A stretch of 64,000 nucleotides of DNA from a virus (IMGVR_UViG_3300021400_000025:150479-214478), one strand, 5' to 3'; positions 14,026-53,470 are shown, counted from the stretch's first letter. Made by a program: numbers and translations. The notes: a model not told the origin generated them from the sequence alone.

Positions 14026-14105
14026 GTTTTACAGTGCGTCCGTTTTGTTGTATAATGTTGTGGAAGGAAGAAAGAGCCATAACCAACATATAGGAAGCAT
14101 CAAAC

Positions 14106-37278: not shown

Positions 37279-37549
37279 GCTTGACACCAATGAAATCGCA
37301 GCAAAGTTGTCCTTCCTCATTGGACGCACGGTATTGCTGAAATCAGAAGATGGCGCGAGTTGCGTGTCTTCCATTGAATCGTTCAGGGTAATGAACAAGC
37401 CCATTCCCATGATTGATGTCTACTACAGTGGGCTTGGAATCCAGCACATCACCACCAGTCGGAAATTCAATGAAGTAATGATTGTGAACGAGCAGGGTGG
37501 AATTGAACCCCTCGGCGAGATAGTTGACAGACTTGGCATTTACTTCTAA
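37268..37549 (+). CDS. Hypothetical protein
   Basis: Operon context. Confidence 0.5.
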   Translation: MSIELDTNEIAAKLSFLIGRTVLLKSEDGASCVSSIESFRVMNKPIPMIDVYYSGLGIQHITTSRKFNEVMIVNEQGGIEPLGEIVDRLGIYF

Positions 37550-37587
37550 TCCAGATTGTTGTATAATGTAGTGGAAAGGAAATCCAC

Positions 37588-38583
37588 ATGAAAATCCGTT
37601 CTGACTATGTTTCAAACTCCAGCTCCAGCTCGTTCGTGATTGCGAATTGCGAACTGATCGAACATTTCAACATCACGAAGCAGGACATCCTTGACGCGCT
37701 GATTGACACCTATGGCAGGGATGACTACAAGCGCAGCGTGAAGCAGCGCGCGAAGTCCGCGAAGGAGTATCCAGAATACCATAAGAAGGAGCTGAAGTAT
37801 GGGCATTTCGGTCCGTTCTGGGTGTATGACATGACCGACAAGGCCGACAGGAAGGAGGCAATTGACCTCTGGGGAAATCTGCTCAAGGGATGGGACGCGA
37901 ACAACTGCAAGAAAGTCACGGACGAGGATTCCGAGGACAACAAGGGGAAGATTGCCAGTGGCTCGGCGTATTCCACCTACCGCGAAATCATGGACAAGCT
38001 CTACGATGTGTATGGAATCTCGTTCTGGGACATCCGTGAGTATGCAGTGAATCCAATCAAGAAGAACATGCCAACCAGGTTCATAAGGTCGGACAAGAAA
38101 GACCCAAAGACTGGATGCTATGGTCATTATGTCCCGGTTGAGAAGGAGATTCTGGATTTCGCAATCAAACTGCGCAAGGACATGGGAATCATGACGAACC
38201 TTGATGTAATCAAGTCGAAGGTTGCGAAGTTCTTCGTCCATGCCGACGACAACACACTGTGTGGAGAGAAATTGAGCGAGAATGGAAATGGCGAGAAACG
38301 TTGGGATGCCAAGAAGAAAGATTGGGTGGAGTGTTCAAGCAAGTGGGAATCCAAGTCCTACACCTTTGACCGCATCTGCGAAATCGTGCTTGAGTGGCTT
38401 GTGAAGAAGGGTAGGGTCAATCTCAACGACCAGGCGTTCATGGACATGATGCGCATTGACGAGAAGTACCTTTCAGCATTCGACAAGGAACATGGGGAGC
38501 TATGGGACTTCGCCAACGGCAAGAACTTCACCTGGAAGGACTTGAAGCACTGTGCCTTGACATGGAACCTGCATGAGGGTTGA
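37588..38583 (+). CDS. SNSSSSSF-motif protein 1 (stand-alone copy)
   Basis: MKIRSDYVSNSSSSSFVIA; promoter at 37539-37567. Confidence 0.8.
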   Translation: MKIRSDYVSNSSSSSFVIANCELIEHFNITKQDILDALIDTYGRDDYKRSVKQRAKSAKEYPEYHKKELKYGHFGPFWVYDMTDKADRKEAIDLWGNLLKGWDANNCKKVTDEDSEDNKGKIASGSAYSTYREIMDKLYDVYGISFWDIREYAVNPIKKNMPTRFIRSDKKDPKTGCYGHYVPVEKEILDFAIKLRKDMGIMTNLDVIKSKVAKFFVHADDNTLCGEKLSENGNGEKRWDAKKKDWVECSSKWESKSYTFDRICEIVLEWLVKKGRVNLNDQAFMDMMRIDEKYLSAFDKEHGELWDFANGKNFTWKDLKHCALTWNLHEG

Positions 38584-38855
38584 GAGACTTGAAGAACGAC
38601 AACGAGATATTGCTTCTGTGCGAATGCTCATCCTGCGAACATCAGATGATTGTCCGTTGGGATGGTTCAGACAATGAAGTGTATGTTGAGGTTCATCTTG
38701 CGGACAGCAAAGGCTTCTGGAAGAGGATGTGGCATGGATTGAAATACATCTTTGGGCACAAGTCCAGATATGGCGCATTCGATGAAATCATCCTGCGCAA
38801 AGAAGATGTCAAGTCAATCCAGAAGATTGTGGATCATCTGAAACAAGTCCGATGA
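38580..38855 (+). CDS. Hypothetical protein
   Basis: LLCECSSCEH...; FWKRMWHGLKYIFG. Confidence 0.6.
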   Translation: MRDLKNDNEILLLCECSSCEHQMIVRWDGSDNEVYVEVHLADSKGFWKRMWHGLKYIFGHKSRYGAFDEIILRKEDVKSIQKIVDHLKQVR

Positions 38856-38864
38856 TGTGGAATG

Positions 38865-41564
38865 TCAGTTGTCCAGATTGTGGATGGTTGTTTCACACAA
38901 CTATTCCAAGTCGTCATCTGATGCCAGCCAGTTATCGGTTTCATCGTCTGGATTCTTCAAGAATGGCTTGTTGGAAAGGAATTTCCCAGAACATACCATG
39001 TGGGGAACATAGAAAGCATTTAACACACAACTCCAAAAATTCGCGTTAGTGCCCATTGAGGCTTTACGTCCTATGTCTTGCAACGATTTTTTCAGTTTCT
39101 TCTGCTGATCTTTGAATCTTGCCATATTAGCAATAAGTTCATTCAGTTCAGGTGGATTTTCGTCATCCTCTTCCTAACCAATGGGCAATTCCAAGAAATA
39201 TCTATCTGTATGCAAGTTTTTTTTGAACACCTTACTGCTCACCAAATCTTTTATATAACCAACGAAACTGTCAGCGATATGGTACTTCTTCTATTCTGGA
39301 TAAAAATATAGATCAGTGCTATCGTCTATTTCATCCAAATCCAGTTCATATCTAAAATATTTCTCTCCGTTGTTGTTCAAATCGTCTTGGATCTGTTGCT
39401 TGGTGTCCAGCCATTGTTGCTCCAATTCTGGTCTGAGAATATCCATCATCAAATTGAAGTTTTTATTGAAGAATTCGCGCAACACAGCAAATACCTGACA
39501 TACCAGATTGTTGATTCTGTTGTTGAAACCAATAGTCAATGAAAGATAATCTCTCAATGATGAATTTGTGTATATGGTTCTAACCAACATGTCACTAAAG
39601 AATCCATCTCTTAAATTCCCAACAGATGTATGTTGAGCAGTCGCCCCACATATGCAACATATGTCAGACACCCCAGGTAGGATTTTCGATGTGTCTGATA
39701 TTAAACAGTTATGTAGAACAGGACGAGTGGGTTCACTTTGCATTCCTCCCGAATAGCAACTTGCAAACCAAAGCCCAAGACTGGATGTTGGATTCCATTT
39801 CATGTGAATGTCGTGCAACTTCCGAAAGAGATCGTTTTTTATACAACCATCCAACCCTCCCTCAAAAATGACATTTTCAAATGCCAAAGCTGAATATCCA
39901 TTGTACTTGTCATTGATTCGATCCAATGAATACTCCTTTCGGGCACCATGCAAAAACCAAAATTCGTTTTTGAATGGAGATATGGTCTTCAAGTATCTGG
40001 AAATCACTGACCAGCTTTTATGTGTTTCTTGCCTAGCATCGACATACCAGTGTTGACGAAAACTATCACCAAATGGGTTGCAATAATGTTTTTCTAATAT
40101 CCTTTTGAGAAAACTAATTGAAGTTTTGGAGAACGGTTCACCTTTTCCAGGAGGACATTCTTTGAACATGGTAAAATCGCACTCTGCCCATGGCTTGAAC
40201 ACAGGATATAGGGTTATATTGGTCTTCAATCCATTGATTGGAAAGCACTCATGCACTATTCTGACATAATCGGGGTTGGTTGCCCCCCCGTTCCACTTCG
40301 TCACAGCCCAATGATTTGCGAACCTGGCCCAAGGATATGTCCATCCAATTTGGTCTGGATGACTCTCTTCGTTGAATTCCACAAATTTGATGATGTTTGG
40401 TTCTTCATCAACTTTGCCATAGTAATTATTTGTGTATTTGATCCATCTATGTGCCACATCTATTTCGGGTTTTTTGTATTGGTTGACACTATAGAAAGCC
40501 TCATCAGATGCTGGATATACTTCATCTGATTGTTGAATCCACTTGTTGTTTGGATTGTTCATTCCCTGTTTCCAGGGAATCCACATATGATCAAATTCAC
40601 CATCTTGGTTGGTTGTGACAACCTTTGCCCTTTTTGGGGACTTATATTCACCAACATCAATTTCCTGCAGTTCCAGCCATGGTCTGTATAGTGCGAAGAA
40701 ACTGTCCACATACACCAACAATGTCTGGATTTTCGGCCCATCCCCATATGGATAAATACAAATATTCAATGAGGATACTGGTTGATTGGTGTTGTTATAG
40801 GAATCAATTGTTGTTTCATAGCTCTTTGTCTATTTCCAATTAACTGATATAGAATGAATGGAATTGTTTATTCCTCTTCCAGAATCCAAATTAGAACAAA
40901 CATACATGTTACTGGGCATGTTGTGTTCTTCTGGATCAGAACCATCTCCTGACAATCCATTGGGGTCTGAACCATCCAATGTGTATGTGTCGTCAAAACA
41001 CACCCAGTTGGTGTACGTATGTGGAGATTCGGTACGAACCATGAAGTATAACGCCTTTCCAAACATGAAATAATATGGCTATATTCCTTCACATCCAACG
41101 AGGTGAACATTCACATGGCTGCTTTCATGCTCACTGGATGTTGTTGTTATGGTTATGACTGTTTCTTCTTCAAGACCAAATGAGTATCTATTTGTGTAGC
41201 CATTGTTGGAATACTCCTCAAGATTAATGCATCCTGCAAGTTCTTGGTTTGGTGTTCCATCGTAGGGGTTCAATGTGCCTTGTGTCAATGTGGAATCTCT
41301 CCAACCACAACCGCTGATTGTTACATCTGGATAATAATACCATTCACTCCATTCACTCCAATTGCCACTTCTATCTGTAGTTCTGCTTCGATTTTTCTTA
41401 GATACAGTGATTGTTTCGATTTGAACACCTTTTCCAGGATGGAACCACAATCTTTCATGTGTCCACTGTTCCCACTCATTGCCCTCATCAGGAACAATCT
41501 ATCTTTCTATGGTTCCCAGGCTGGATCCATTGTAAACGGTTGTTTTAATAGTCCATCTACCCAT
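38865..41564 (-). CDS. 899-aa protein with putative clan-CD (C13/caspase-like) cysteine protease domain, six in-frame TAG
   Basis: One frame from ATG 41564 (RBS GAGGAGG) through TAGs 41499, 41079, 40830, 39291, 39174 and 38901 to TGA 38865; FWFLHGA and LWFASCYSGGM dyad motifs. Confidence 0.6.
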
Positions 41565-41565
41565 G

Positions 41566-44500
41566 TCAAATTTCCTCCTCTTCATCAGTCTCATTTGAAT
41601 CTCTGGTGATGACGACGAATCCCTCATTGCCTTGTTCTGACTCGGCAATCCAATCGTCTATTCCCACATCATCTTCTGTTGTGCCATGTGTATTGGCGAA
41701 CTCTCCTTCTGGGAGAGCAGGCAATGAATCGTAGTATTGTCTCACTTCTGCATAATCAGGGAAATGCGGCGTGGGATATTGCTGGTCTATCTATTGGAAT
41801 TCCTGCTTGAGTTCAGGATCCAAATCCTCCCAATCGTCATAGTTCCATGTTGTGTTGGTGGGATCCCATTCTGGTGGCGTGGGTTCTGTCTGTTCTCCTC
41901 CCCCTTCTTCTTCTGGTGGTTGCTTGTCCTCGGCGTATATGATGGATTCGTCCAGACCCCATGGGTAGTTCGCCATTTCCCTCACCTGCTGGATGGTTCT
42001 TCCCACGAACATGACCTGTGTCAGTCCCTTGCCTGTCGTGGAGTCTTTGTTGTTCAGAAATGCGTCTATCCCTATGTTCTGGACATGCAGTGGAATCTGG
42101 ATAGTTTTCAATTCCAAGCATGCCATGACAGCCTCTCTCCCAATTTCCACCACGCTTTCTGGGATTGTCAAGGTGGTCTTCCTTCCTTGTGGACAACGCA
42201 ACAATATGCTTCCATCCTTGGAGAGGAGCAGATTGTCCACAGATGAATAGTTGGGGTTGGATTCTGAGACCACCATGTTTTCCAAGTTCACGCATCCCAC
42301 GAACTGCCAGATTTGCCCATAGGGTTTCTAGTAGATTAAAGAACCCACATTGTCGCCAATAATCACTTCTTCTAGGTCAGGGGATTCGTTGAAGATTGCG
42401 TCGCCATCTTCTGCAATCGCCACATCGTCGCCAATCACTGCCTTCTTGATGTGCTTGACCCATCTAAGCGAATAGTCATAGAAACCATGGCGCGCCATCC
42501 ATGTCAATGACAATGGTTCATCGCCCAAATCGAATGTGTGGGTGGTTCCGTCTTCCATTGTGAATGTGACTTTGCCATCTTTGGGTTGTGGTTCTGGATC
42601 AGGTTCTGGATCATCTTCAATCCAATCTGCTGTGAATGTGAACGCCCATGTGTGGTTTGCTGGCTTGAATGGTGGCATCCAACCATTGAATGTCCAACCC
42701 TCAACTGGGTCAGGCGAGGGTGGTGTGTAGTCGTAGTCGATCTCCACCGAGTTTGTGGTCAGTGCATCCTTTGGTTGTTCACCATGCCCTGCCATGTCAT
42801 AATGTATTGGATACTCAACCAATTTCCAATGGGCATACCAAGTCTCATCCCCAATTATCACATGCCCAATCTCTATTTTTTCGCCATCCTCGTCTGGGGA
42901 GTTCCACCATCCATCTTGGACATATCCAGTCCTGGTTGCAGTTTCCGAAATAGAATCAACCATGTCACCCACATTGAAATGCAATGTGTTGCTTTCTACA
43001 ACCCCACCATTTCCATCCAATGCTATTGTTGCTGGTGTGGGTTCAGGCTCGGGTTCAGGATCAACCACCTTCCATTGGGCAGTGAATCTGACATCCCCAG
43101 TGGAGCCATGGGGGACATCCACAGGAAGCCAACCATTGAATTCAAATCCAACAATGCCATTTGGAGCTGGAGGCAAGTATCTCTGGCTTTCAACATTGTA
43201 ATGCGTCAAAGCTTCTGATGGAATCTCCCCGTGCCCGTTCATGTCATAAGAAATCGCATACTCGATTGGCGTCCAATGTGCGAAAATGCCGATGTCGCGT
43301 GAAATTTGAATGGGGGATTCCAGATGGGTTCCACCATTTTGCGCTGTGTACCATCCATCGAACACATAGCCTGTTCTGCTTGAATCAGGAAGATTGAACA
43401 TCGTTCCATCAAGAAGGGAGAGCGAAGTCTGCGCGAATCCCCAATCCAGATGGATGTTGAACATCTATGGCTCAGGTTCAGGCTCGGGTTCAGGTTCAGG
43501 CTTCTCATCTTCATCAAGCCAATGTGCATAATAGACATTTGCATCTTGGACAATGGTGGACTCGTCTATCGTCTCTCCATCAACCTCATGCGTCCACCAC
43601 CCATCGAACACATGCCCTGTCAGACTGGCTGTTGGCAATTCACCAATTTTCTCCCCCACTTGTCTTGTGGATGCGATTATGAGATGGACATTTGCGATTG
43701 ATGGATCTGGTTCTGGTTGAGGCTCAGGTTCAGGCTTGTTTTCAATCCAATGGACATAGTATGTGATGTTGCCTGTTATAGTGGTTGAGGCCGATACCTG
43801 GTTCCCGCCACTCGCTGCAGTCCACCAACCACCAAAATCATACCCATCTCGTTCCAGTGTGGGCAATGTGCCAAGCGTCGAGCCATATGTCCCTGTCATG
43901 GTTGTGTTTTCGCCACCCCCATTCGCATTGAATATCACCGAGTAGGTTTTTGGCTCCCAATGGGCATAATATATGATTGGCTCTTGGAATGTTTGGTCTA
44001 TGTCCAGTTGCGAACCACCTTCAATCTCCGTCCACCAGCCTTGAAAATTATATCCCTCCCTTGTTGGAGCAGGAGGAACTTCAGTCAACGTTTTTCCAAT
44101 TTCCACATCCTCTGTGAAATTCGCCTGCTCGCCACCATTCGTGAAGAAGGAGATCCGCACATATTCAATCTCTGGTTCCTCTGGCTGTTCAAGCACCTTA
44201 TAATAGACGGCATCGCTTTGTTGTTTGAGCAATCCTGCGCCCAACATGATTGATTTCGCATTGGGAATCTATGCTTCGCTCTTCACATAGAATGTGACTG
44301 GAGTCCACTTGCTGAGATTTGTGCAAGAACCAAGTGCATATGAACCAATGCTCTGCACGGTGCTTGGAATGAAGACTGTGTATAGTTTCGGGCATTGAAA
44401 GAAAGCCTTCTCTCCTATGGATTGAACTCCTTCTGCCATCTTGACTGTGACAAGGTATGGTGCCCGCTCAAACGCCGACTTCTCTATGCTTGTCACTGAA

Positions 44501-45174
44501 GAACCAATGTCCACACGGGTTATCTTGCGTTCATCCCTGAAAACATAGGGGATGCCAGATACACCAGATAAATGTGCCTTGAATCCTTCCAAAATCATGA
44601 ATTGGTTCGTCAAAGCACCCGTTATGTCGTATTCTTCGCTTTCACCATCTTGAAATGTGAACACTGTATGCGATGGGTCTGTGGCTTCCGCCACCTTTGG
44701 AACTATAACTTTCGCCACGTTTTCCTCCTGTATGCCCCAAGGATAGTTTGGTGAATTTTTCACCTCTTTGTTGGTCATCATCACGAACGTCACTTTGAAT
44801 TCTGGGTTGATTGACGCCAATGCATTTCCGTCAATCTGCGTGGTTGAACCATTGATTGTCACTTGCCTCACATTTGGACCGACAACTCCACCACCCAGCA
44901 TTGTCACGTTTGATCCAACTCTGATTTGCGCGATGTTGTTGAGCATTTGAACCAACCTGCGAGAAGGTTGTCTGGTGGTGGGTTGCTCTCCCTCACCAGC
45001 ATCTACCGCCAAACCATGCTCAACCAACCAATCCAAGTCAAGGTTTCCCACGATGTCGTATGTCAAGACAGTGCCATCATCCAATATGAATGTGGTGCAT
45101 CTGTCCTTGTCGCTCTGTTGAACAAGGATTCTATTGGCATGCAATTTTCTAAGGATTAAACTAGAATTACCCAT
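41566..45174 (-). CDS. 1202-aa adhesin-like protein: BspA LRRs plus InlB-B (Listeria-Bacteroides) repeats and PE linkers, four in-frame TAG
   Basis: Joins four track ORFs through TAGs 44269, 43465, 42328 and 41791; SSVTSIEKSAF, ESVVEIGREA, FNANGG...REGYNFQGWWT repeats; TGTAAATA upstream. Confidence 0.75.
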
Positions 45175-45248
45175 GATTAAACCAACTATCCAATGTTATT
45201 TACACAAATTCAATGGCAAGAAAGATGTGATGTCTTTGTTGCCTGCCA

Positions 45249-45485
45249 TCAGTTGGTGTATTCAAATCCATCCTTGAATTTCCTGTCAGGTGGATAATGC
45301 GCACCACTCCATGTTGAATCCCCCTCTTTGATGAGATTCCCAAGCCTTTGCCACCAATACTTGAATGGATGCTTGTGCTTGAACAACATTTCATCGGCTT
45401 TGCGTTCAAGCATGATGTGGTATTCCTTCTATCCGGCCTCTGTCGGTCTATGGCAGAGTTCAAGTGTCTTTGTTTCGTATACCAT
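45249..45485 (-). CDS. Small hypothetical protein, one in-frame TAG
   Basis: MVYETKTLELCHRPTEAG*KEYHIML...; after GGTAAATA (45531-45538) and a CA-rich leader. Confidence 0.55.
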
Positions 45486-45556
45486 GGTTGTGTTGTTGTT
45501 GTTGTGTGTGGATGTATGTGTGTTTGGATATATTTACCTTTTGGCGCGCGGAACAT

Positions 45557-45594
45557 AACATCGCATCCATCTCGGCATGTTTCTTGTATAATTG
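45557..45594 (+). promoter_or_regulatory. Promoter with 23-nt upstream box (copy 2)
   Basis: AACATCGCATCCATCTCGGCATG, then TATAAT at 45587-45592; same spacing as the 7768 copy. Confidence 0.6.
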
Positions 45595-45619
45595 TTGTTG
45601 TTGAAAAGGAAATTCCACA

Positions 45620-46114
45620 ATGGACAAGACAACAAGACGGGAATTCATATTTGGCGCAGTCGCCGTGGCGGCAATCGTCCCATTTGCTGGAGGCACTTCA
45701 GATGTGGCAGAGCAACCCATTACCGACGAAGTGTTTGAGGACATAAGGGTTGACAGGTACTATATCCTCAAGGGTGGGCAATATGGCGACACTGGTGGAA
45801 TTGGATGTCCAGGATTCGAGTTGGGGATTGGTACGGTCAAGGAAATGGCTTGGCAGAAGTACTGCAACATGCTTGACAGATGGATGGACAACATCGAGGA
45901 CAAAGGTTTCTACCTTGAAGTGGTGGGGTATTTCGGACCTGACGATGCCAAGCCATTTGGTAGAATCCGGTTGAACAGGGACTGGCTCATGAAGTTCTAC
46001 AATCTTCACAAGAACGAGACGAAAGAGGATTGGGAGAGGAAATATGGGGACTATTTGGAGTCTCTTCATTGGCCGAAGGCAAGTCTTTCCAAGCTTGGAA
46101 CATTGACAATTTGA
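45620..46114 (+). CDS. Hypothetical protein with twin-arginine-like signal
   Basis: MDKTTRREFIFGAVAVAAIVPFAGG. Confidence 0.6.
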   Translation: MDKTTRREFIFGAVAVAAIVPFAGGTSDVAEQPITDEVFEDIRVDRYYILKGGQYGDTGGIGCPGFELGIGTVKEMAWQKYCNMLDRWMDNIEDKGFYLEVVGYFGPDDAKPFGRIRLNRDWLMKFYNLHKNETKEDWERKYGDYLESLHWPKASLSKLGTLTI

Positions 46115-46127
46115 GGAAAAAACTATA

Positions 46128-47348
46128 ATGGAAGAAAAGAAAAAGTTTGTTGTTGGCGTGATTGGAACGCAGAACACTGGGAAATCCACCTTCATCGGCG
46201 ACATAATGGACAAGTTCAAGGGTTCTCTGAGCGAGTTCCACACTGTTGGATGCGACTACCGCGAGAAGATAAGGAAAGCTGGACTTCAGATTAACAGGAA
46301 CGGCAACCTTGAGGCGCAGAAGATAATCCTTGACACCTTGGTTGAGCAGCTTGACATAATCCAGAAGATGCCAGATGGAAACTACATGACGGACCGCTCC
46401 CCAATCGACGCATATGTCTACACCATGTATCTGTTCAGACACAATCCCGAACTTGGAATCACCCAGTCTGACCTTGATGAAATGTTCAACAAGGTGAAGA
46501 AGTCCATAGAGGGATATGACAGGATAATCTACATTGATCTTGACAACTGTGGGAATGTTGAGGTTGTTGATGACACCTTTCGCGACACGAACCTTGAATA
46601 TCGGGCCGAGATTGACAGGTTGTTCAAGGAGACTTTCCGCAGTCTGGGCAAGGCTCTTGATGGGAAACTGAATTCAGAAATCAAGGGTACGAGGGAAATG
46701 CGGGTCAACCAGTTCCTTGAGATGGAAGGTGGGCGTTTCTTCGTTGGATAGAGAAGGACGGTTGAGTTGAGAACCACAAGATATCCAGATCCACCCCAGA
46801 AGGTGGATGTGATTCACGAGGATGGCTACAGGGTCACTGACAAGTATGTGCTGTTCTACGGCAGTTTCCTCTCCAACTTTTCAAGATGCAAGTTCACGTG
46901 GGAGTATATGGGAGAAAGCCACGAGTTCTTCTGCACGGAGCAGGCGTTCATGTGGGCAAAGGCAAAGTTGTTCAATGACCCAATAATGAGCAAGGCAATT
47001 CTTGACGAGAAGGACGACCCAATGGAATGCAAGCACTGTGGAAGATGGGTTCAGGGATATGATGACAAGAAATGGGCGGAAGTCAGATACAACATCATGC
47101 GGGATGTCAACTTCGCCAAATTCAGTCAATGCAAGTGGCATAGGAACAAGCTTCTGAATCCAGAATTCGATGGCAAGACATTCGTTGAGGCTTCTCCCAG
47201 CGATGGGATATGGGGAATCAGAATGAGCATAGCCGAAAAGGGGGTTCTTGACGAAAGGAACTGGAATGGGCAGAACCTCTTGGGGAAGGCAATAACTGAG
47301 GTCAGAGAGAAACTTAAGGCTTTACAGGTTGTCCAAAATGTTGTATAA
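46128..47348 (+). CDS. P-loop (dNMP-kinase/AAA_28-like) domain plus NADAR domain, joined through TAG 46749
   Basis: GTQNTGKST, TDRSPID; after the TAG: FLSNF, CTEQAFMWAKAKLF, FVEASPSDGIWG, GQNLLGKAITEVR (NADAR/YbiA). Confidence 0.75.
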
Positions 47349-47371
47349 TGTAGTAGGAAAAGGAAACGCCG

Positions 47372-47755
47372 ATGAAAATCAGAATAGACTATGTTTCAAA
47401 CTCAAGTTCAAGCAGCTTCATGGTTGTGGGGCATGCGTTTGACAACGAGGAACTTGCGAAGATTGCCGAATACAACAAGCTGGTTTCTGAATACCAGGAC
47501 ACCCCAGAGGACTACAGCGAGTGGAGCAATGGCGAGATAGTTGAAGCCCTTGAGGAGAAGTTCAAGGACTTGGACTTCCAGTATGGACTGGAGAACTACT
47601 ATGATGAGGTCTGCATTGGAATGGGGTATGAGAAGATGAAGGATTCCGAGACAAGGAAGGACTTTGAGAAGAGGATTGCCGACAGGTTGAAGGAAATGAC
47701 TGGCAAGGACAACATTGAGATTGACTGCATGGTTGATGGTGGAACGGAGTGTTGA
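47372..47755 (+). CDS. SNSSSSSF-motif protein 2
   Basis: MKIRIDYVSNSSSSSFMVV; promoter at 47321-47349. Confidence 0.8.
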   Translation: MKIRIDYVSNSSSSSFMVVGHAFDNEELAKIAEYNKLVSEYQDTPEDYSEWSNGEIVEALEEKFKDLDFQYGLENYYDEVCIGMGYEKMKDSETRKDFEKRIADRLKEMTGKDNIEIDCMVDGGTEC

Positions 47756-47758
47756 GAA

Positions 47759-48325
47759 ATGAAACTCAGAAGCGATTATGTCAGCAACAGTTCTTCGTCT
47801 TCGTTCATCATAATAGCCGACAATGGCGAAGACCAGACCGACAACATCCAGCAAGATTTCTCGTCCTACACGAATGACTGGACTTGCTATGAAATCCCAT
47901 GTCAGAATGGCAAGCATCAGTTTGGATGGGAATGGGAGGACACATGCACCTTTGAAGGCAAGTTGAACTTCGTTGGAATCCAGTTGCTCTACCTGTTCCT
48001 TGAGAAGATTAGTGGAAGGGAGCCGGACCACAAGAGGGAGTTCACAGGCAAGGACTTCGATAGACTCTACGACATGGTGAAGAAGGTCTGCAAGGAACAG
48101 TTCGGGTTCAATGTCAAGTTGAACGAGGATGCAATCAAGATGCACATCTGGCATGACGACGAGCGTGGCTATTATGGCTACAGCATGTTGAACGACAACT
48201 ACTACATTGACCACCAATCTGCATCGTCAGAGGGCGAGTGCATGGAAATGTTCGAGTCGGAGGATGCCTTGTACAACTTCCTCAGATTCCAGGAATCCTA
48301 CATCCGTGGTGGAAACGACAATTGA
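47759..48325 (+). CDS. SNSSSSSF-motif protein 3
   Basis: MKLRSDYVSNSSSSSFIII. Confidence 0.8.
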   Translation: MKLRSDYVSNSSSSSFIIIADNGEDQTDNIQQDFSSYTNDWTCYEIPCQNGKHQFGWEWEDTCTFEGKLNFVGIQLLYLFLEKISGREPDHKREFTGKDFDRLYDMVKKVCKEQFGFNVKLNEDAIKMHIWHDDERGYYGYSMLNDNYYIDHQSASSEGECMEMFESEDALYNFLRFQESYIRGGNDN

Positions 48326-48341
48326 TTAAGGAGAGAATACG

Positions 48342-48668
48342 ATGACATTTGCCATACATTGCAGTTGGGCTAATTATTGCGCTTCCAAAGATGGAACGAT
48401 TGAAGCGAATTCCTACGATGAACTGTTTGATGAAATGCAGAAGTTCTTTGAACATGCATGTGGATTCACTGGCGTTGAGGCGTTTGAGATTTCCCGTCCA
48501 TATATTGAGGATTGGGAAGAGGACGATGGTGAAGAACCTGACATGTACGAATGGGATTGGGAAAACCTGAGAAGGAACCGGAACCTTTCGGATGTATGGG
48601 ACAAGGTGAAACGTGAAATCAAGGAAGAATGGGGAAAGGACTACTTCAACAAGGGAGAAAAGTCATGA
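48342..48668 (+). CDS. Acidic hypothetical protein, paralog A (no motif)
   Basis: Similar to the 48665 gene. Confidence 0.65.
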   Translation: MTFAIHCSWANYCASKDGTIEANSYDELFDEMQKFFEHACGFTGVEAFEISRPYIEDWEEDDGEEPDMYEWDWENLRRNRNLSDVWDKVKREIKEEWGKDYFNKGEKS

Positions 48669-48964
48669 GATTCAGAGTGTATTCCTATTGGGCCGATGGT
48701 TGTGCGAATGCGCGAGATGACATCAAGGCATCTACAACTGACGAGCTTCTCAAGAAGATTGAGGAGAGTTTCAGAAAGGCTTGTGGTGCCATTGGTGGGG
48801 TTGAGAGTTTCTCCGTTGTGTGTTCCGACAAGGACGAAATGGACGATGACTACGAATACGATTGGAACAACAGAAATCTGAGGCGAAGCGAGGACTTGGC
48901 CGATGTTTGGCAAGACGAAGTGAGTTTGGAAATCAAGAACTTTTTCAAGGAGACATTCAAATGA
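48665..48964 (+). CDS. Acidic hypothetical protein, paralog B (no motif)
   Basis: ATGA-coupled at both ends; similar to the 48342 gene. Confidence 0.65.
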   Translation: MRFRVYSYWADGCANARDDIKASTTDELLKKIEESFRKACGAIGGVESFSVVCSDKDEMDDDYEYDWNNRNLRRSEDLADVWQDEVSLEIKNFFKETFK

Positions 48965-49440
48965 AAATCAGAAGTGACTATGTAAGCAACAGCTCAAGCA
49001 GCTCGTTCATCATTGACTTTGGGGATGACAAGGGAGCCTGCATTGACAATGGATTCATGAAGCTGCTCAAGCACGTCAATGGAATCATCCTCAGATGCGT
49101 GTTGGAATCCAAGGACGAATTGAAGGAGTTTGAGGAGAAGGCCTTTTCGGCATTTGGTCCGAAGGTGGATGTGTGGAAGTACGACGACGAACTTGACTTT
49201 GAGATTTCAGTTGACTCCGAGTACATTTCAGAAGATGACAAGCAGATTGACTACATACGAAATGTTCTTCAGAAGAAGAATGGTTCAATCTACTGCCAGT
49301 GTGGAGACGATTTTGGCGAGGACTTGACCAATGCTGTTCAGGTTGCAACCATCATGGAAACCAGGTACAAGCAAATTGAAATCAGTGGGGACGACCACTT
49401 TGATTACCACAGCATCCGTGGTTCGGACCTTGACATTTGA
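48961..49440 (+). CDS. SNSSSSSF-motif protein 4
   Basis: MKIRSDYVSNSSSSSFIID. Confidence 0.8.
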   Translation: MKIRSDYVSNSSSSSFIIDFGDDKGACIDNGFMKLLKHVNGIILRCVLESKDELKEFEEKAFSAFGPKVDVWKYDDELDFEISVDSEYISEDDKQIDYIRNVLQKKNGSIYCQCGDDFGEDLTNAVQVATIMETRYKQIEISGDDHFDYHSIRGSDLDI

Positions 49441-49454
49441 AGGAGAGCAGACAC

Positions 49455-49916
49455 ATGAAAATCCGAACAGACTACGTCAGCAATTCGAGTTCATCCAGTT
49501 TCGTGATAGTTGGGAAGGTGTTTTCCGATGCTGACAAGCTGATGGACACATTGGTGAAGGACAAGGCCAAGTTGTTGGAGGACTTGAACAAGGAATACGA
49601 AAGCGAATGCGAGTCCCTTGACGATTTCATTGAGCAGGAATCTCTCTCTGAGGTTCTGTATACTGTACTTGACAAACTTGGTCTTGACTTCCAGATTGCA
49701 GGAAGAGATTGGGACGAGGTTGAGGAAGTTCTTGTTGGCTATGACATGAAGTCTGGAGACAACAAGATGAAGGACACAGAGACCTTGAAGGAGTACAAGA
49801 CCCGAGTTGTTGACGCGCTCAACGATAAGGGATTGGATGCAAAGTACGATGAAGTTGCCATCGTCACTGGTGGTTCGGATGCTGGTGGCACGACTTTCTT
49901 CAACGAATGTGGTTGA
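49455..49916 (+). CDS. SNSSSSSF-motif protein 5
   Basis: MKIRTDYVSNSSSSSFVIV; body similar to protein 2 (KMKDxETxKxxxxR). Confidence 0.8.
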   Translation: MKIRTDYVSNSSSSSFVIVGKVFSDADKLMDTLVKDKAKLLEDLNKEYESECESLDDFIEQESLSEVLYTVLDKLGLDFQIAGRDWDEVEEVLVGYDMKSGDNKMKDTETLKEYKTRVVDALNDKGLDAKYDEVAIVTGGSDAGGTTFFNECG

Positions 49917-49934
49917 TTGGCATGGGGAAATCAA

Positions 49935-50210
49935 ATGAAAATCCGTTCAGACTATGTTAGCAACTCCAGTTCGTCAAGTTTCATCGTTGACAGGGAAACC
50001 CTTGTTCGGTACATTGAAAAATACGGACCACCAGAGATTGAATATTACCACAAGGAAGTGAACGGCATTGAATGCGTTGAGTTCTCTGGAGAAGACGATG
50101 AACACACCGTTGAGGGCTATGACAGCGACGAGGACTATGTGAGAAGCCTTTACGAGGACATGGGTAATCTATTTGACCCCAAAATCATTAGATGGTCAAA
50201 CGACCATTGA
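49935..50210 (+). CDS. SNSSSSSF-motif protein 6
   Basis: MKIRSDYVSNSSSSSFIVD. Confidence 0.8.
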   Translation: MKIRSDYVSNSSSSSFIVDRETLVRYIEKYGPPEIEYYHKEVNGIECVEFSGEDDEHTVEGYDSDEDYVRSLYEDMGNLFDPKIIRWSNDH

Positions 50211-50225
50211 CAGGAGAATGAACAA

Positions 50226-50714
50226 ATGAAAGTTAGAGCAGATTATGTGAGCAATTCAAGTTCCAGCTCCTTCGTAATCAAGAAGGATGCAGCGAAGGCC
50301 GCGAAGATGTTCCTTGACGATTTCGGGGACTGCATCCATGACGCATTTGACCCTTTGGGCGAGACAATGAACATTGGCGTCCGCACAGTTGGAGCATCAG
50401 AAGACGATTGGTTGGACTGGTTCAGTCCTGAGAGGTTCTGTGGGGACTACATTGATGGTCCGTACGATGGGGTCACCGACACCCATGCCGACCCCTTAAA
50501 CCCAGAGGACATAGCCGAATTGGGCTTTGAGTGCGATGACTGGGACAAGGAGTCCATGGGCAACCTTGCGTTCCTCTACAAGTATTTCAAGAAGTTTGGG
50601 TTTAGACCTGACGATTCAGATTCTGAACACGACTTCCTGGACAAGGACACATTCCTTGGAAGGATTCTGGACAGGCTGGAAGTGAAGGAGAAAATAGATG
50701 AAAATCAGAAGTGA
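50226..50714 (+). CDS. SNSSSSSF-motif protein 7
   Basis: MKVRADYVSNSSSSSFVIK. Confidence 0.8.
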   Translation: MKVRADYVSNSSSSSFVIKKDAAKAAKMFLDDFGDCIHDAFDPLGETMNIGVRTVGASEDDWLDWFSPERFCGDYIDGPYDGVTDTHADPLNPEDIAELGFECDDWDKESMGNLAFLYKYFKKFGFRPDDSDSEHDFLDKDTFLGRILDRLEVKEKIDENQK

Positions 50715-51384
50715 CTATGTGAGCAATTCAAGTTCAAGCAGCTTCGTTGTGGTTCTTCCAAAGAACTACAGGCAGGAGGATTTCATTGACGATGTTGTTC
50801 GGGCATGCTCAGACGACAGGGATGTGGTATATGACGACGAGTACATTGAGGAATTGAACAAGTTCAATCGGCGCAATCTTGACTTCTGCATGAATTCCTA
50901 CGAACTGCTCTTCATTGGGGAACTTGAAGTTGGTTGGGCCCCTGAGTGGAACGACGTTGACAAGGCAGAGGCAGTGACAATCAACTCCCAATTGATGCGA
51001 TGGAGCATCAGACACTACAAGTTCAATGAAACTGACGATAAGTATCGGAAGAAGGTTGTTGAGAACATCATGAAGTGCTGCGACAGGAAGAACAGGGACA
51101 ATCCATTTTCCCGAGATGACCACATGGGAATCTGCGAAATCACCATGAACACAATCCTGAACACGCAGGACTTGATTGCCGAGGGGAAGAAACTTGAATT
51201 GCCAAAGTGGGCTGACCTTGAGACGTTGAAGAAGCGGATCGAGGATGGGGACAGAATCTTCTGCATTGAAATGAACCAGGGTGGCGATGGTCAGGACATT
51301 GGATCAATCTACGCCTTGAATGGCTGGGATTCCAACTTTAACAAATATGCCAATGTGCAAGTTCTTGGCTCTTGGATGGGGTGA
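50698..51384 (+). CDS. SNSSSSSF-motif protein 8
   Basis: MKIRSDYVSNSSSSSFVVV. Confidence 0.8.
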   Translation: MKIRSDYVSNSSSSSFVVVLPKNYRQEDFIDDVVRACSDDRDVVYDDEYIEELNKFNRRNLDFCMNSYELLFIGELEVGWAPEWNDVDKAEAVTINSQLMRWSIRHYKFNETDDKYRKKVVENIMKCCDRKNRDNPFSRDDHMGICEITMNTILNTQDLIAEGKKLELPKWADLETLKKRIEDGDRIFCIEMNQGGDGQDIGSIYALNGWDSNFNKYANVQVLGSWMG

Positions 51385-51475: not shown

Positions 51476-51511
51476 CGAAATGAGTATAATTGAGTTTAGG
51501 ACATAGCTGAC

Positions 51512-53470
51512 ATGGCGAACAACACAAACCATAGCGTATTGACTGCATCTGCTTCACCTGTTGACAGGGTGAACAAGTTGAACACGTAGGGCGCTGGACA
51601 GGCTGGATCAGAGAAAGACGATAGAATCCAGATTCTGGCGCAGAACCGAAACTTCGAGACATTCAAATCCTACACCAGCAAGATTGAGAAGATAATCGAC
51701 AAGCAGGGGATCGTCTCGCTCCAGAATCCTGGAATCTCAACTGCGTTCTTCGGCTATGTCTCCGACGAGTTCGACCACAACTACATCCCCCTCATCACCG
51801 ACAAGTGCCAGAGGTTGTGGCAGTACAGGGCAATCTCGGAATTCCCAGAATGCAACTGGTGCATCAACGAAATCGCGTCTGACTTCCTTACAGTTTCCTC
51901 GACTGGCGAGTTCATCAGATTGAACTTCTCCCCTGACATTTCGGACAAGTTGAACCAGCAACAACAGGATCTGATTCAGAAGGAGTTTGAGAACTTCATC
52001 AAGCTGTTCGACATCCGCAACAACATCGTGGATATCATCAGAACCTATGTCATCGAGGGCGAAGTCTGCTGGGAGAACATCATCAACCACGACATTCCCA
52101 CATTGGGAATCATTGGTGTGAAGAGGTTGAGGAACGACTTCTACGACATCCTCATCAACCAGGCGACAGGGGACAATTGTGGCATCTACTTTGACCTTGA
52201 CAAGTATGCACAGGAGCTTCAATACACGCTCTCTGCGTATTATTCCCAGAACTCCGCCATATTCAACACCATCTACACGAATGGCTATCGTGGATTGGAC
52301 TTCAGCTCCGCGCAGAATGTTGTTCCCTTGCTGTTCCCACAGATAACCTACTTCTCCCACGACAAGAAGTCCCCGAATGGGAGGGTGACATATTCCATAA
52401 TCGAGGGCGTGAAGCAGGCGTACTATCAGTTGGTTCTATTGCAGGACGCCGCCGTGATCATGAGGGTGACGCGGGCTCCAGTGAGGTTGCTCTTCAACAT
52501 AGCGACTGGTGGAATGGCAGACAAGGTTGCGCACGAGTACGTGAGGAAGTTCGCCCAGAAGTTGTCCGAGAAGAAAGTTGCGAAGATTGACAGGCAATCC
52601 AACAACTCCATGATTGGCAAGACCTACAATCCAAGTTCAATGCTGGACAGTTGGGTGTTTCCGAAGTCAAATGCGAACGATGGAACCACAGTCTCCACGA
52701 TTGAACAGACTGCCCAATACGACCAGATTGAAGACCTCAAGTTCTTCCTGAAGCGAATGATTAAGCAGTTCGGCGTTCCATACACAAGATGGGACAATCT
52801 TGAATCCAATTCCTATCGTGCTTCAACCGAAATCACACAGGAGGAGTTCTCCTTCTCAAAGTTGGAGCTGAACATCCAGATGAAGTTCGCAAAGGCTCTT
52901 CAGGACTCGTTCATCGTCCATTTGAAGCTGCGTGGAATATGGCAGCAGTGCCAGTTGAAGGAAAGCGACTTCTTTGTGGAGTTCACGCCACCATATGTCT
53001 ATTCCAAGTTCATCTCGAACCAGGAAATCTCCCAGAAGATGGATCTGTACGCCAAGTACGCCGACAGAGACGAGATGTCAAAGACATGGGCGCAGAAGCA
53101 CATCCTTGGCATGACTGACGCCGAGATCAACGAAATGAACCAGCTCAGGCTGTTCGATGGCATCATGGCCGCGATGGTCGAGGGCATTGGCGAGAAATAC
53201 ATGGGTGGAGAGATTGACGCCTCCCAGATAACCAAGCTGAAGACCATGACGATGGCCAGCCTTGAGGAAATACTTGCCCACAGCATATTCAACACCAACA
53301 AGATCAATGTCACAACAGCAGACGAAGAGAATGGAGAGGGTGGAGAAAATGGCGAAGGTGGAGATGAAGGTGAAGGTGAAGAAGGTGGTGGAGCAGACGA
53401 AGGAGGTGGAGAAGATGACATGGGTGGAGGCGACGAAGGTGGTGGAGCAGACGACAACCCATTCGCCTGA
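51512..53470 (+). CDS. Portal protein (T4 gp20-like), one in-frame TAG at codon 26
   Basis: YRAIS..PEC..CINEI, VIEGE, QDAAVIMRVTRAPVRLLFNI, IEDLKFF. The frame extends to ATG 51512 through TAG 51587. Confidence 0.88.

Follow-up and report, generated by a model that had tools for sequence, protein, structure and literature searches.

The virus genome considered here encodes a set of small proteins that begin alike and then, for the most part, go their separate ways. The DNA that we analyzed, referred to below as the window, is a 64,000-nucleotide stretch (IMGVR_UViG_3300021400_000025:150479-214478; G000:C1:150479-214478 in our numbering) taken from a virus record that is complete at 418,068 bp and carries direct terminal repeats. 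Eight open reading frames (ORFs) in the window start with one and the same peptide, MK[ILV]RxDYVSNSSSSSF, which we call the tag. Because the family of tagged proteins travels with one radical SAM/SPASM enzyme, the tag is most likely the enzyme's recognition signal, and the reading that we favor, and regard as probable though far from secure, is that the tag is the recognition site and most likely the modification site of this one dedicated enzyme.

The tagged genes were found at the very starts that an earlier reading of the DNA, made from the sequence alone (the sequence-only reading), had assigned to them. Each is preceded, 6-10 nt 5' of its start, by a Shine-Dalgarno-like GGAG or AGGA, and all eight stop at TGA:

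37588-38583, plus strand: tagged protein 1, 331 aa, isoelectric point (pI) 7.1, tail ...NLHEG; a solitary copy
47372-47755, plus strand: tagged protein 2, 127 aa, tail ...DGGTEC; body family in common with protein 5
47759-48325, plus strand: tagged protein 3, 188 aa, tail ...RGGNDN
48961-49440, plus strand: tagged protein 4, 159 aa
49455-49916, plus strand: tagged protein 5, 153 aa, tail ...GGSDAGGTTFFNECG; the best conserved copy
49935-50210, plus strand: tagged protein 6, 91 aa
50226-50714, plus strand: tagged protein 7, 162 aa
50698-51384, plus strand: tagged protein 8, 228 aa

Aligned, these copies are invariant at 14 of the tag's 16 positions. Over the 48-nt motif, mean pairwise identity is 0.93 for amino acids, 0.70 for nucleotides and 0.56 for third codon positions, and directly past the motif nucleotide identity drops to 0.33. 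Both serine codon boxes, TCN and AGY, are used at each of the six serine positions. With serine codons so mixed, and peptide identity exceeding nucleotide identity, selection has acted on the peptide and the motif is not a DNA repeat, just as the sequence-only reading had held. A ninth tagged ORF starts outside the window, at G000:C1:329959(-), and reads MKIRSDFVSNSSSSSF; beyond this and the eight window copies, six-frame translation of the 418-kb genome revealed no further instance of the strict motif. Per genome, profile E-values lie between 1e-12 and 1e-19.

The tag is not peculiar to this genome. A profile built from the first 36 residues matched 12,835 protein clusters when it was searched against 1.84 billion representative proteins at E <=1e-3, and among the best matches listed the tag nearly always begins at residue 1. 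A degenerate DNA pattern for the tag retrieved viral contigs, upward of 112 of them and 8 to 504 kb in size, in which tandem arrays of 1-7 copies are typical, together with more than 120 prokaryotic contigs. The latter are mostly metagenome-assembled genomes (MAGs) and isolates of Clostridia, together with Methanoculleus, Arenibacter, Sporomusa, Deltaproteobacteria and a Kaiserbacteria MAG. Scans of the eight window proteins against Pfam, NCBIfam and PADLOC gave nothing above noise, and a Pfam scan of 103 diverse family representatives gave no match. The sole library family to match is PHROG 7397, with which all eight align (E 5e-7 to 0.06), in most cases across positions 1-20 to 1-97 of its profile. 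NCBI and UniRef label tagged members 'hypothetical protein', and literature searches with motif strings, and with radical SAM, SPASM and phage as terms, turned up no paper describing the motif or the pairing of tag and enzyme. The tag thus heads a very large protein family for which we found no matching Pfam or NCBIfam model and no published description.

Evidence for the enzyme comes from the company that the tagged genes keep. We fetched 232 loci (112 viral, 120 prokaryotic) by the tag DNA pattern alone, and clustered the ORFs that lie on the same strand as the tagged genes and no more than 3 kb from them. The dominant neighbor, present at 136 loci, is a protein of ~354 aa. By a hidden Markov model (HMM) of its family, a radical SAM/SPASM ORF of this size occurs at 160 of the 232 loci, and in 159 of these 160 it occupies the strand of the tagged genes; the median distance is 837 bp, and so the enzyme usually adjoins them. 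It is present in 99 of the 120 prokaryotic loci and, among the 12 viral loci with 4 kb or more to either side, in 10. Ten enzyme-free viral loci were checked by whole record, and all ten records encode exactly one copy elsewhere. The association holds in the reverse direction, too: when 80 viral loci were retrieved for their likeness to the enzyme, 64 proved to hold between 1 and 10 tagged ORFs within 6 kb. One enzyme family stands out from this tabulation, then, and it is linked to the tag both ways. The sequence-only reading had proposed that variable payloads share a common handle, which might, among other things, be a leader that one modifying enzyme reads. That proposal is strengthened by the two-way linkage, and by the unrelated bodies and the free N-terminal arm described below.

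What sort of enzyme is this? The neighbors score 23.4 against Pfam SPASM, which passes the cut-off of 21.5, and 27.1 against Radical_SAM, just under the cut-off of 29.5. In their alignment the region of the cysteine triad is invariant, and seven SPASM cysteines are conserved; the cluster motif is Cx7Cx2C in the enzyme of the present genome and the canonical CxxxCxxC in some relatives. Local NCBIfam matches are to MftC, WgkB, StrB-type and PqqE models, with scores far below the cut-offs and no equivalog among them. The nearest structures by PDB profile are SuiB (1.5e-8), SkfB, PqqE, anSME and BtrN, and the closest characterized relatives—SuiB, SkfB, PqqE and anSME—all modify peptides or proteins. 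Only ~55 residues precede the radical SAM core.

The virus itself has one such gene, G000:C1:257323-258600(-), for a protein of 425 aa (hmmsearch E 1e-44) in which all of the conserved SPASM cysteines are present and in-frame TAG is absent. Its closest relative, 78% identical, is on a 10-kb contig (L242) without a tagged gene, an arrangement that matches the dispersed layout of this phage. About 1.4 kb downstream of the radical SAM gene of this genome is an ORF that resembles LemA, judged by eye (L233:5353-5895, minus strand), and LemA-family genes (Pfam 1.9e-33 in L036) are found near tagged genes in 14 other loci. Position 9 of the tag is either Ser or Thr, and on a tree of 192 enzymes the choice changes just 3 times; such rare switching is compatible with co-inheritance of tag and enzyme, and is no proof that the two co-evolved.

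Put together, the favored reading runs as follows. The 16-residue arm, which in many unrelated folded proteins precedes the first core beta-strand, would be recognized by the radical SAM/SPASM enzyme and most likely modified by it, and the nine tagged proteins of this genome would be clients of its single 425-aa enzyme. Through one enzyme, an identical chemical change would then be imposed on a whole set of proteins that are small, mostly acidic and made from host-type promoters. The change could be a cross-link, an oxidation or an epimerization within K2/R4/D6/Y7/N10/Ser11-15. The proteins themselves may have a role in host takeover or counter-defense.

If the tag is indeed a client signal, it would mark one of the largest unannotated post-translational modification systems of the virosphere, spanning more than 12,000 protein clusters, and an unusual one, its substrates being folded proteins and not short peptides. 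Thousands of early genes now called 'hypothetical', in phages of the gut and rumen, in jumbo phages, and in T4-like phages of Klebsiella, Enterobacter and Citrobacter, would also acquire a handle on their function. The SPASM repertoire might gain a new reaction from it.

Several observations sit uneasily with this reading. Linkage is what the loci display; that the tagged proteins are substrates, and what chemistry they might undergo, we infer from it, and linkage of this kind fits a partner or adaptor of the enzyme equally well. The leaders of RiPPs (peptides made on the ribosome and modified after translation) are rarely so invariant, and we know of no RiPP cores that are folded domains of 90-330 aa. 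Pfam and NCBIfam scans of five of the enzymes recognized no PqqD-like/RRE domain. In the virus under study the enzyme gene lies ~56 kb past the array of tagged genes, outside the window and on the opposite strand to them. The C-terminal tails, which are specific to subfamilies, hint that the C-terminus matters, something that a pure N-terminal tag leaves unexplained. And the support that the reading draws from a predicted complex of this virus's enzyme with protein 5 is weak. The ipSAE of the complex is 0.40 (0.41, 0.40 and 0.36 in individual runs), compared with 0.00 for the best of three controls; the runs share at least 36% of contacts, and the pLDDT of the partner is at least 68. In the benchmark, the pass mark let through 58 of 80 solved complexes and, of 110 mismatched pairs, 2; scores of 0.60 or less account for only 7 of the 80 solved complexes and for both of the passing mismatches, counts that hold only roughly here because we used our own alignments.

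The tag might dock proteins on the enzyme and remain unmodified. The bodies would then be interchangeable specificity or regulatory subunits, for host proteins, nucleic acids or metabolites, and the enzyme would act on whatever they bring to it. This would account for the same two-way linkage, for the presence of many diversified bodies and one enzyme per genome, and for an enzyme in which the scans find no RRE domain; the predicted binding, with the same benchmark caveats, lends it the same weak support. Two considerations lead us to think docking unlikely. The closest characterized relatives of the enzyme act on the peptide that they bind, and the residues of the tag that could react (K, R, D, Y/F, N and the serine run) are invariant over the 12,835 clusters, a pattern that one would sooner expect of a reaction site than of a peptide for docking.

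The bodies differ greatly. Among the eight window proteins only 2 and 5 resemble one another past the tag (BLAST E 4e-5), in agreement with the sequence-only reading. Further afield, 494 non-redundant members of the family fall into 80 body BLAST clusters, and when the 24 largest body profiles were compared by hhalign the median probability was 0.2%, and two pairs only exceeded 90%. Individual bodies are nonetheless kept by related phages. Homologs of protein 8 are 40-92% identical in the body, with the tag invariant throughout; protein 5 is 77-100% identical across related phage contigs of 420-437 kb; and the body cluster of protein 1 (cluster 5, with an xCxHEG tail) has 18 members in other phages. 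The bodies had been described as acidic, and seven of the eight are so, with pI values of 4.3-4.7, the neutral protein 1 being the one to which the description does not apply. Family-wide, the median pI is 4.6, compared with 6.1 for neighboring genes.

The tails were said to be rich in Gly, Asp, His and Glu. This extends to the family in part: among the last five residues His is enriched 3.7-fold, Gly 1.8-fold and Cys 1.6-fold, and conserved tails such as RFSHH, GAGRDG, CxHEG and ECG are each specific to a subfamily. In one large subfamily of ~190 aa, found in other phages (L012:1183-1758 and L006:1056-1631, for example), the tag continues into F[VI]C[DE][IL]CG...ESGWDM, so that a zinc-ribbon-like CxxC comes directly after the serine run.

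AlphaFold models of two window proteins are confident except where they begin. For protein 8 the pLDDT is 89, and residues 1-11 are below 50; for protein 5 it is 85, and residues 1-12 are below 50. In both, the first core strand begins at S14/F16. Because residues 1-11 or 1-12 have low confidence in models that are otherwise confident, we regard the tag, in these two predicted structures, as a flexible free arm of the monomer that precedes the first core beta-strand. We tried, and dropped, the idea that the tag is a phosphate-binding loop of the HAD, PP-loop or ASKHA kind; it is unpacked in the models, and profiles gave the idea no support.

Both models have the order beta1-helices-beta hairpin-helix-beta, then tail, and this raises another question: whether all of these proteins belong to a single, highly divergent superfamily with a ferredoxin-like core, in which the N-terminal strand and serine loop combine with the C-terminal tail to form a ligand, metal or catalytic site, the enzyme being a mere neighbor in the pathway. 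The shared order of elements fits, as do tails rich in His, Gly and Cys that are conserved within subfamilies. VIA-align comparisons with 48,161 chains gave best Z scores of 4.1 and 4.0, to ferredoxin-like, ACT and palm-type structures, weak matches far under the level of a shared fold and too weak for a fold to be named. Foldseek found no match in the PDB at E <=0.001 for either model; searches of AFDB clusters yielded uncharacterized look-alikes only, and of the ESM Atlas, unnamed clusters only. The possibility that the proteins fold into one already characterized domain is therefore not borne out by these two models. With residues 1-11 unpacked in both, no homology among body profiles, and strict co-occurrence with one enzyme family left unexplained, we judge a common superfamily of this kind to be quite unlikely.

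The tag also occurs outside viruses, in a setting that bears on its purpose. At about 9 of the 120 prokaryotic loci, among them those of Sporomusa sp. KB1, Arenibacter, Cellulophaga, Catalinimonas and Methanoculleus, it forms part of a four-gene cassette:

L236:4800-9469: cassette locus of Sporomusa sp. KB1
L239:4974-9504: cassette locus of Arenibacter
L122, L124, L162, L164, L169, L210 and L224: further cassette loci

First comes a NACHT/STAND nucleoside triphosphatase (NTPase) of 880-930 aa; it is followed by a small protein (131-133 aa), then by the tagged protein (138-140 aa) and last by the radical SAM/SPASM enzyme. The tag of the cassettes is MKIRxDFVTNSSSTSF, and their enzyme has the canonical CxxxCxxC. 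The NTPase matches PADLOC Avs2 at 9e-32, and in Sporomusa its N-terminus is like LmuA/HamA. The flanks are variable and resemble defense islands, with AbiC, GmrSD, SocA and integrase genes. Mobile as it appears to be, the cassette is a candidate defense system that uses the same pair of tag and enzyme.

This invites a bolder form of the favored reading, which we offer tentatively and with more doubt than conviction: that the 16-residue tag is universal, that one enzyme modifies diversifying early effectors through it, and that, by way of the Avs2-like cassettes, the modified tag has become a currency of the conflict between phage and host. An immune sensor might use or mimic the tag, for example, or a phage might arm or shield its anti-defense proteins with it. 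If so, the Avs-like cassettes may connect the system to prokaryotic innate immunity.

The cassettes are found in bacteria and an archaeon, without capsid genes, and this weakens an explanation that the virus on its own might have suggested: that the tag is a targeting signal, which directs proteins to the capsid for packaging and delivery with the DNA, as with the internal proteins of T4, or directs delivered proteins to export or into a compartment. The array of tagged genes does stand directly upstream of a T4-like portal gene (Portal_T4, 1.3e-62), the family is present in T4-like phages, and a shared N-terminus on hypervariable proteins is the very pattern of T4 internal proteins. We nevertheless consider targeting most improbable: the tag is the same beside the Avs-like NTPases of these chromosomal loci, and it stays invariant across phages of 8 to 500 kb with differing capsids; a conserved [LI]xE protease site was not found after it in the alignment of window copies, it is without signal-peptide character, and the radical SAM linkage goes unexplained. 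No better founded is the notion that the N-terminal strand and polar serine run form an assembly handle, driving homo- or hetero-oligomerization by beta-strand addition or as a polar zipper, for despite the free arm, with its alternating charged and hydrophobic pattern, and the several paralogs in one operon, many prokaryotic loci have just one tagged gene and hence no hetero-partners, and the enzyme linkage is again unexplained.

The favored reading, that the tag is the enzyme's recognition and probable modification site, is directly testable because culturable enterobacterial phages carry both the enzyme and tagged genes. Cultured T4-like phages with a homolog of the enzyme, at 29% identity, number 170; their hosts are Klebsiella, Enterobacter, Cronobacter, Citrobacter and Escherichia. 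It was by way of the enzyme that we reached these, followed by a search of phage Miller with the tag profile; blastn and tblastn searches of cultured phages with the array, with protein 8 and with two other subfamilies gave no matches. The tagged proteins of Citrobacter phage Miller are two, CPTMiller_00117 and CPTMiller_00122; each starts MKIRSGFVSNSSSSSF, and their tails are GGGYDG and SKSHH:

NC_025414.1, 68091-68558 (L324:592-1059): first tagged gene of phage Miller
NC_025414.1, 71969-72481 (L324:4470-4982): second tagged gene of phage Miller

A vWA-domain gene lies between the two, and the enzyme, CPTMiller_00165, is ~19 kb away, with no tagged gene within 5 kb on either side of it. By similarity of their enzymes, the 170 cultured enterobacterial phage records are candidates for a layout like that of Miller.

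In the window, the seven tagged genes other than the first are tightly packed over 47372-51384, with gaps of -40 to +18 nt, behind one promoter match, much as a single array had been claimed. Two untagged paralogs (36% identity, BLAST E 2e-15) are interleaved with them and overlap each other by 40 nt; a Pfam scan matched neither to a family. These ORFs, and the promoters, are as follows:

37539-37567, plus strand: putative sigma-70-like promoter before tagged gene 1, TTTACT, 17-nt spacer, TATAAT
47321-47349, plus strand: putative sigma-70-like promoter before the array, TTTACA-17-TATAAT, 11 of 12 positions matched
48342-48668, plus strand: untagged small acidic ORF within the array, 108 aa, paralog of the next
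48629-48964, plus strand: untagged small ORF within the array, 111 aa, paralog of the preceding

The two promoters have the 14-mer TTGTATAATGTAGT in common. With up to two mismatches, and TTTAC[AT] 17 nt before TATAAT, this core occurs nine times in the genome; four of the copies are in the window, at 14048, 34484, 37559 and 47341, and one is ~1.3 kb upstream of the ninth tagged gene. The recurring core likely represents one host-type promoter class. 'Consensus early promoters' had been ascribed to both loci, and near-consensus promoters of the sigma-70 type are indeed there; that the tagged genes are expressed early is what this consensus suggests, and does not by itself establish.

The two loci had also been remarked upon for containing no TAG, the implication being that the host's code suffices to translate them. 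The statement is correct but trivial: the tagged ORFs were called with translation table 11, so the absence of TAG is uninformative, and many other long ORFs in the window are free of it as well. Elsewhere in the window TAG is read as sense in some genes, as in two stop-to-stop frames, 38865-41741(-) and 41566-45195(-), which hold 7 and 4 TAGs. Of the 33 tRNA genes in the genome one, at C1:268611-268687(-), is a suppressor with a CUA anticodon, labeled Pyl by aragorn, and 31 more are clustered at C1:231541-242512. Both places are outside the window, and what they contain supports recoding of TAG by this phage.

The portal gene follows directly after the array, at 51494-53470 on the plus strand. 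Its stop-to-stop frame reaches upstream to 51494 and includes 2 TAGs; where the gene truly starts may therefore hinge on read-through of TAG. Shortly before the array, an AAA_28 kinase-like gene (46128-46751, plus strand) ends at a TAG, in frame with a NADAR-domain ORF (46767-47348, plus strand) whose only start is TTG. If TAG is sense, 46128-47348 becomes one frame of 414 codons, and a kinase-NADAR fusion may therefore be made only when the suppressor tRNA is active.

How does all this compare with systems that are better understood? The best sequence relatives are the SPASM peptide maturases and their partners, SuiB-streptide, SkfB, PqqE-PqqA and MftC-MftA. Like these, the present enzyme has a radical SAM core and a C-terminal set of SPASM cysteines and, in other genomes though not in this one, it usually adjoins a gene or genes that share a conserved N-terminal peptide. 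Unlike these, it satisfies no equivalog model, and no PqqD/RRE domain was found in the scans. In place of short peptides it has, as presumptive clients, folded proteins whose bodies are unrelated and which measure 90-330 aa (up to ~900 aa); the 16-mer, counted from Met1, is nearly invariant over thousands of clusters; and it is mostly phages that carry the system, in which one enzyme has as many as 10 clients.

In the type of client, another parallel is anSME/AtsB, a SPASM radical SAM enzyme and weak sequence relative (PDB 4k36/4k37, E 2e-4); the Ser or Cys that it modifies belongs to a short motif within a folded protein of full size. The C/S-x-P/A-x-R motif of sulfatases is absent from the tag and from the alignments, however; the clients here are not sulfatases, their tag is at the extreme N-terminus, and there is no sign of formylglycine chemistry. 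The FxSxx-COOH peptides, in which F-x-S-x-x presumably forms the C-terminus of a short peptide acted on by an FxsB-type enzyme, differ in polarity: a comparable [FY]-V-[ST]-N-S is present in the tag at residues 7-11, toward the N-terminal rather than the carboxyl end, and the FxsB model is absent among the NCBIfam matches listed for the enzymes.

The internal proteins of T4-type phages possess an N-terminal targeting peptide of ~10 residues that ends in the prohead-protease site [LI]-x-E. The tagged proteins are like them in being small, hypervariable phage proteins with only a short N-terminal peptide in common, from a family that T4-like phages also carry. They are unlike them in that the tag has no conserved cleavage site, occurs in non-viral cassettes of bacteria and archaea as well, and has its linkage with a radical SAM enzyme, not with capsid genes. 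PHROG 7397, whose first ~20-100 positions align to the tag, is without annotation; it covers a small part of the family, mostly by matches to the tag only.

There remains the HXS antiphage system, in which the protein HxsA, with His-Xaa-Ser repeats, is matured by the radical SAM enzymes HxsB and HxsC, alongside HxsD (PMC13128918). HXS is a bacterial defense with two radical SAM enzymes, a small protein and a periplasmic effector with HxS repeats, whereas the present system has one enzyme and a Ser-run tag, and is mainly phage-encoded; HxS repeats were not found in the tagged proteins, and there is one enzyme per genome. It is, all the same, the nearest published concept to the one put forward here: a protein effector matured by radical SAM enzymes in the conflict between phage and bacterium (PMC13128918).

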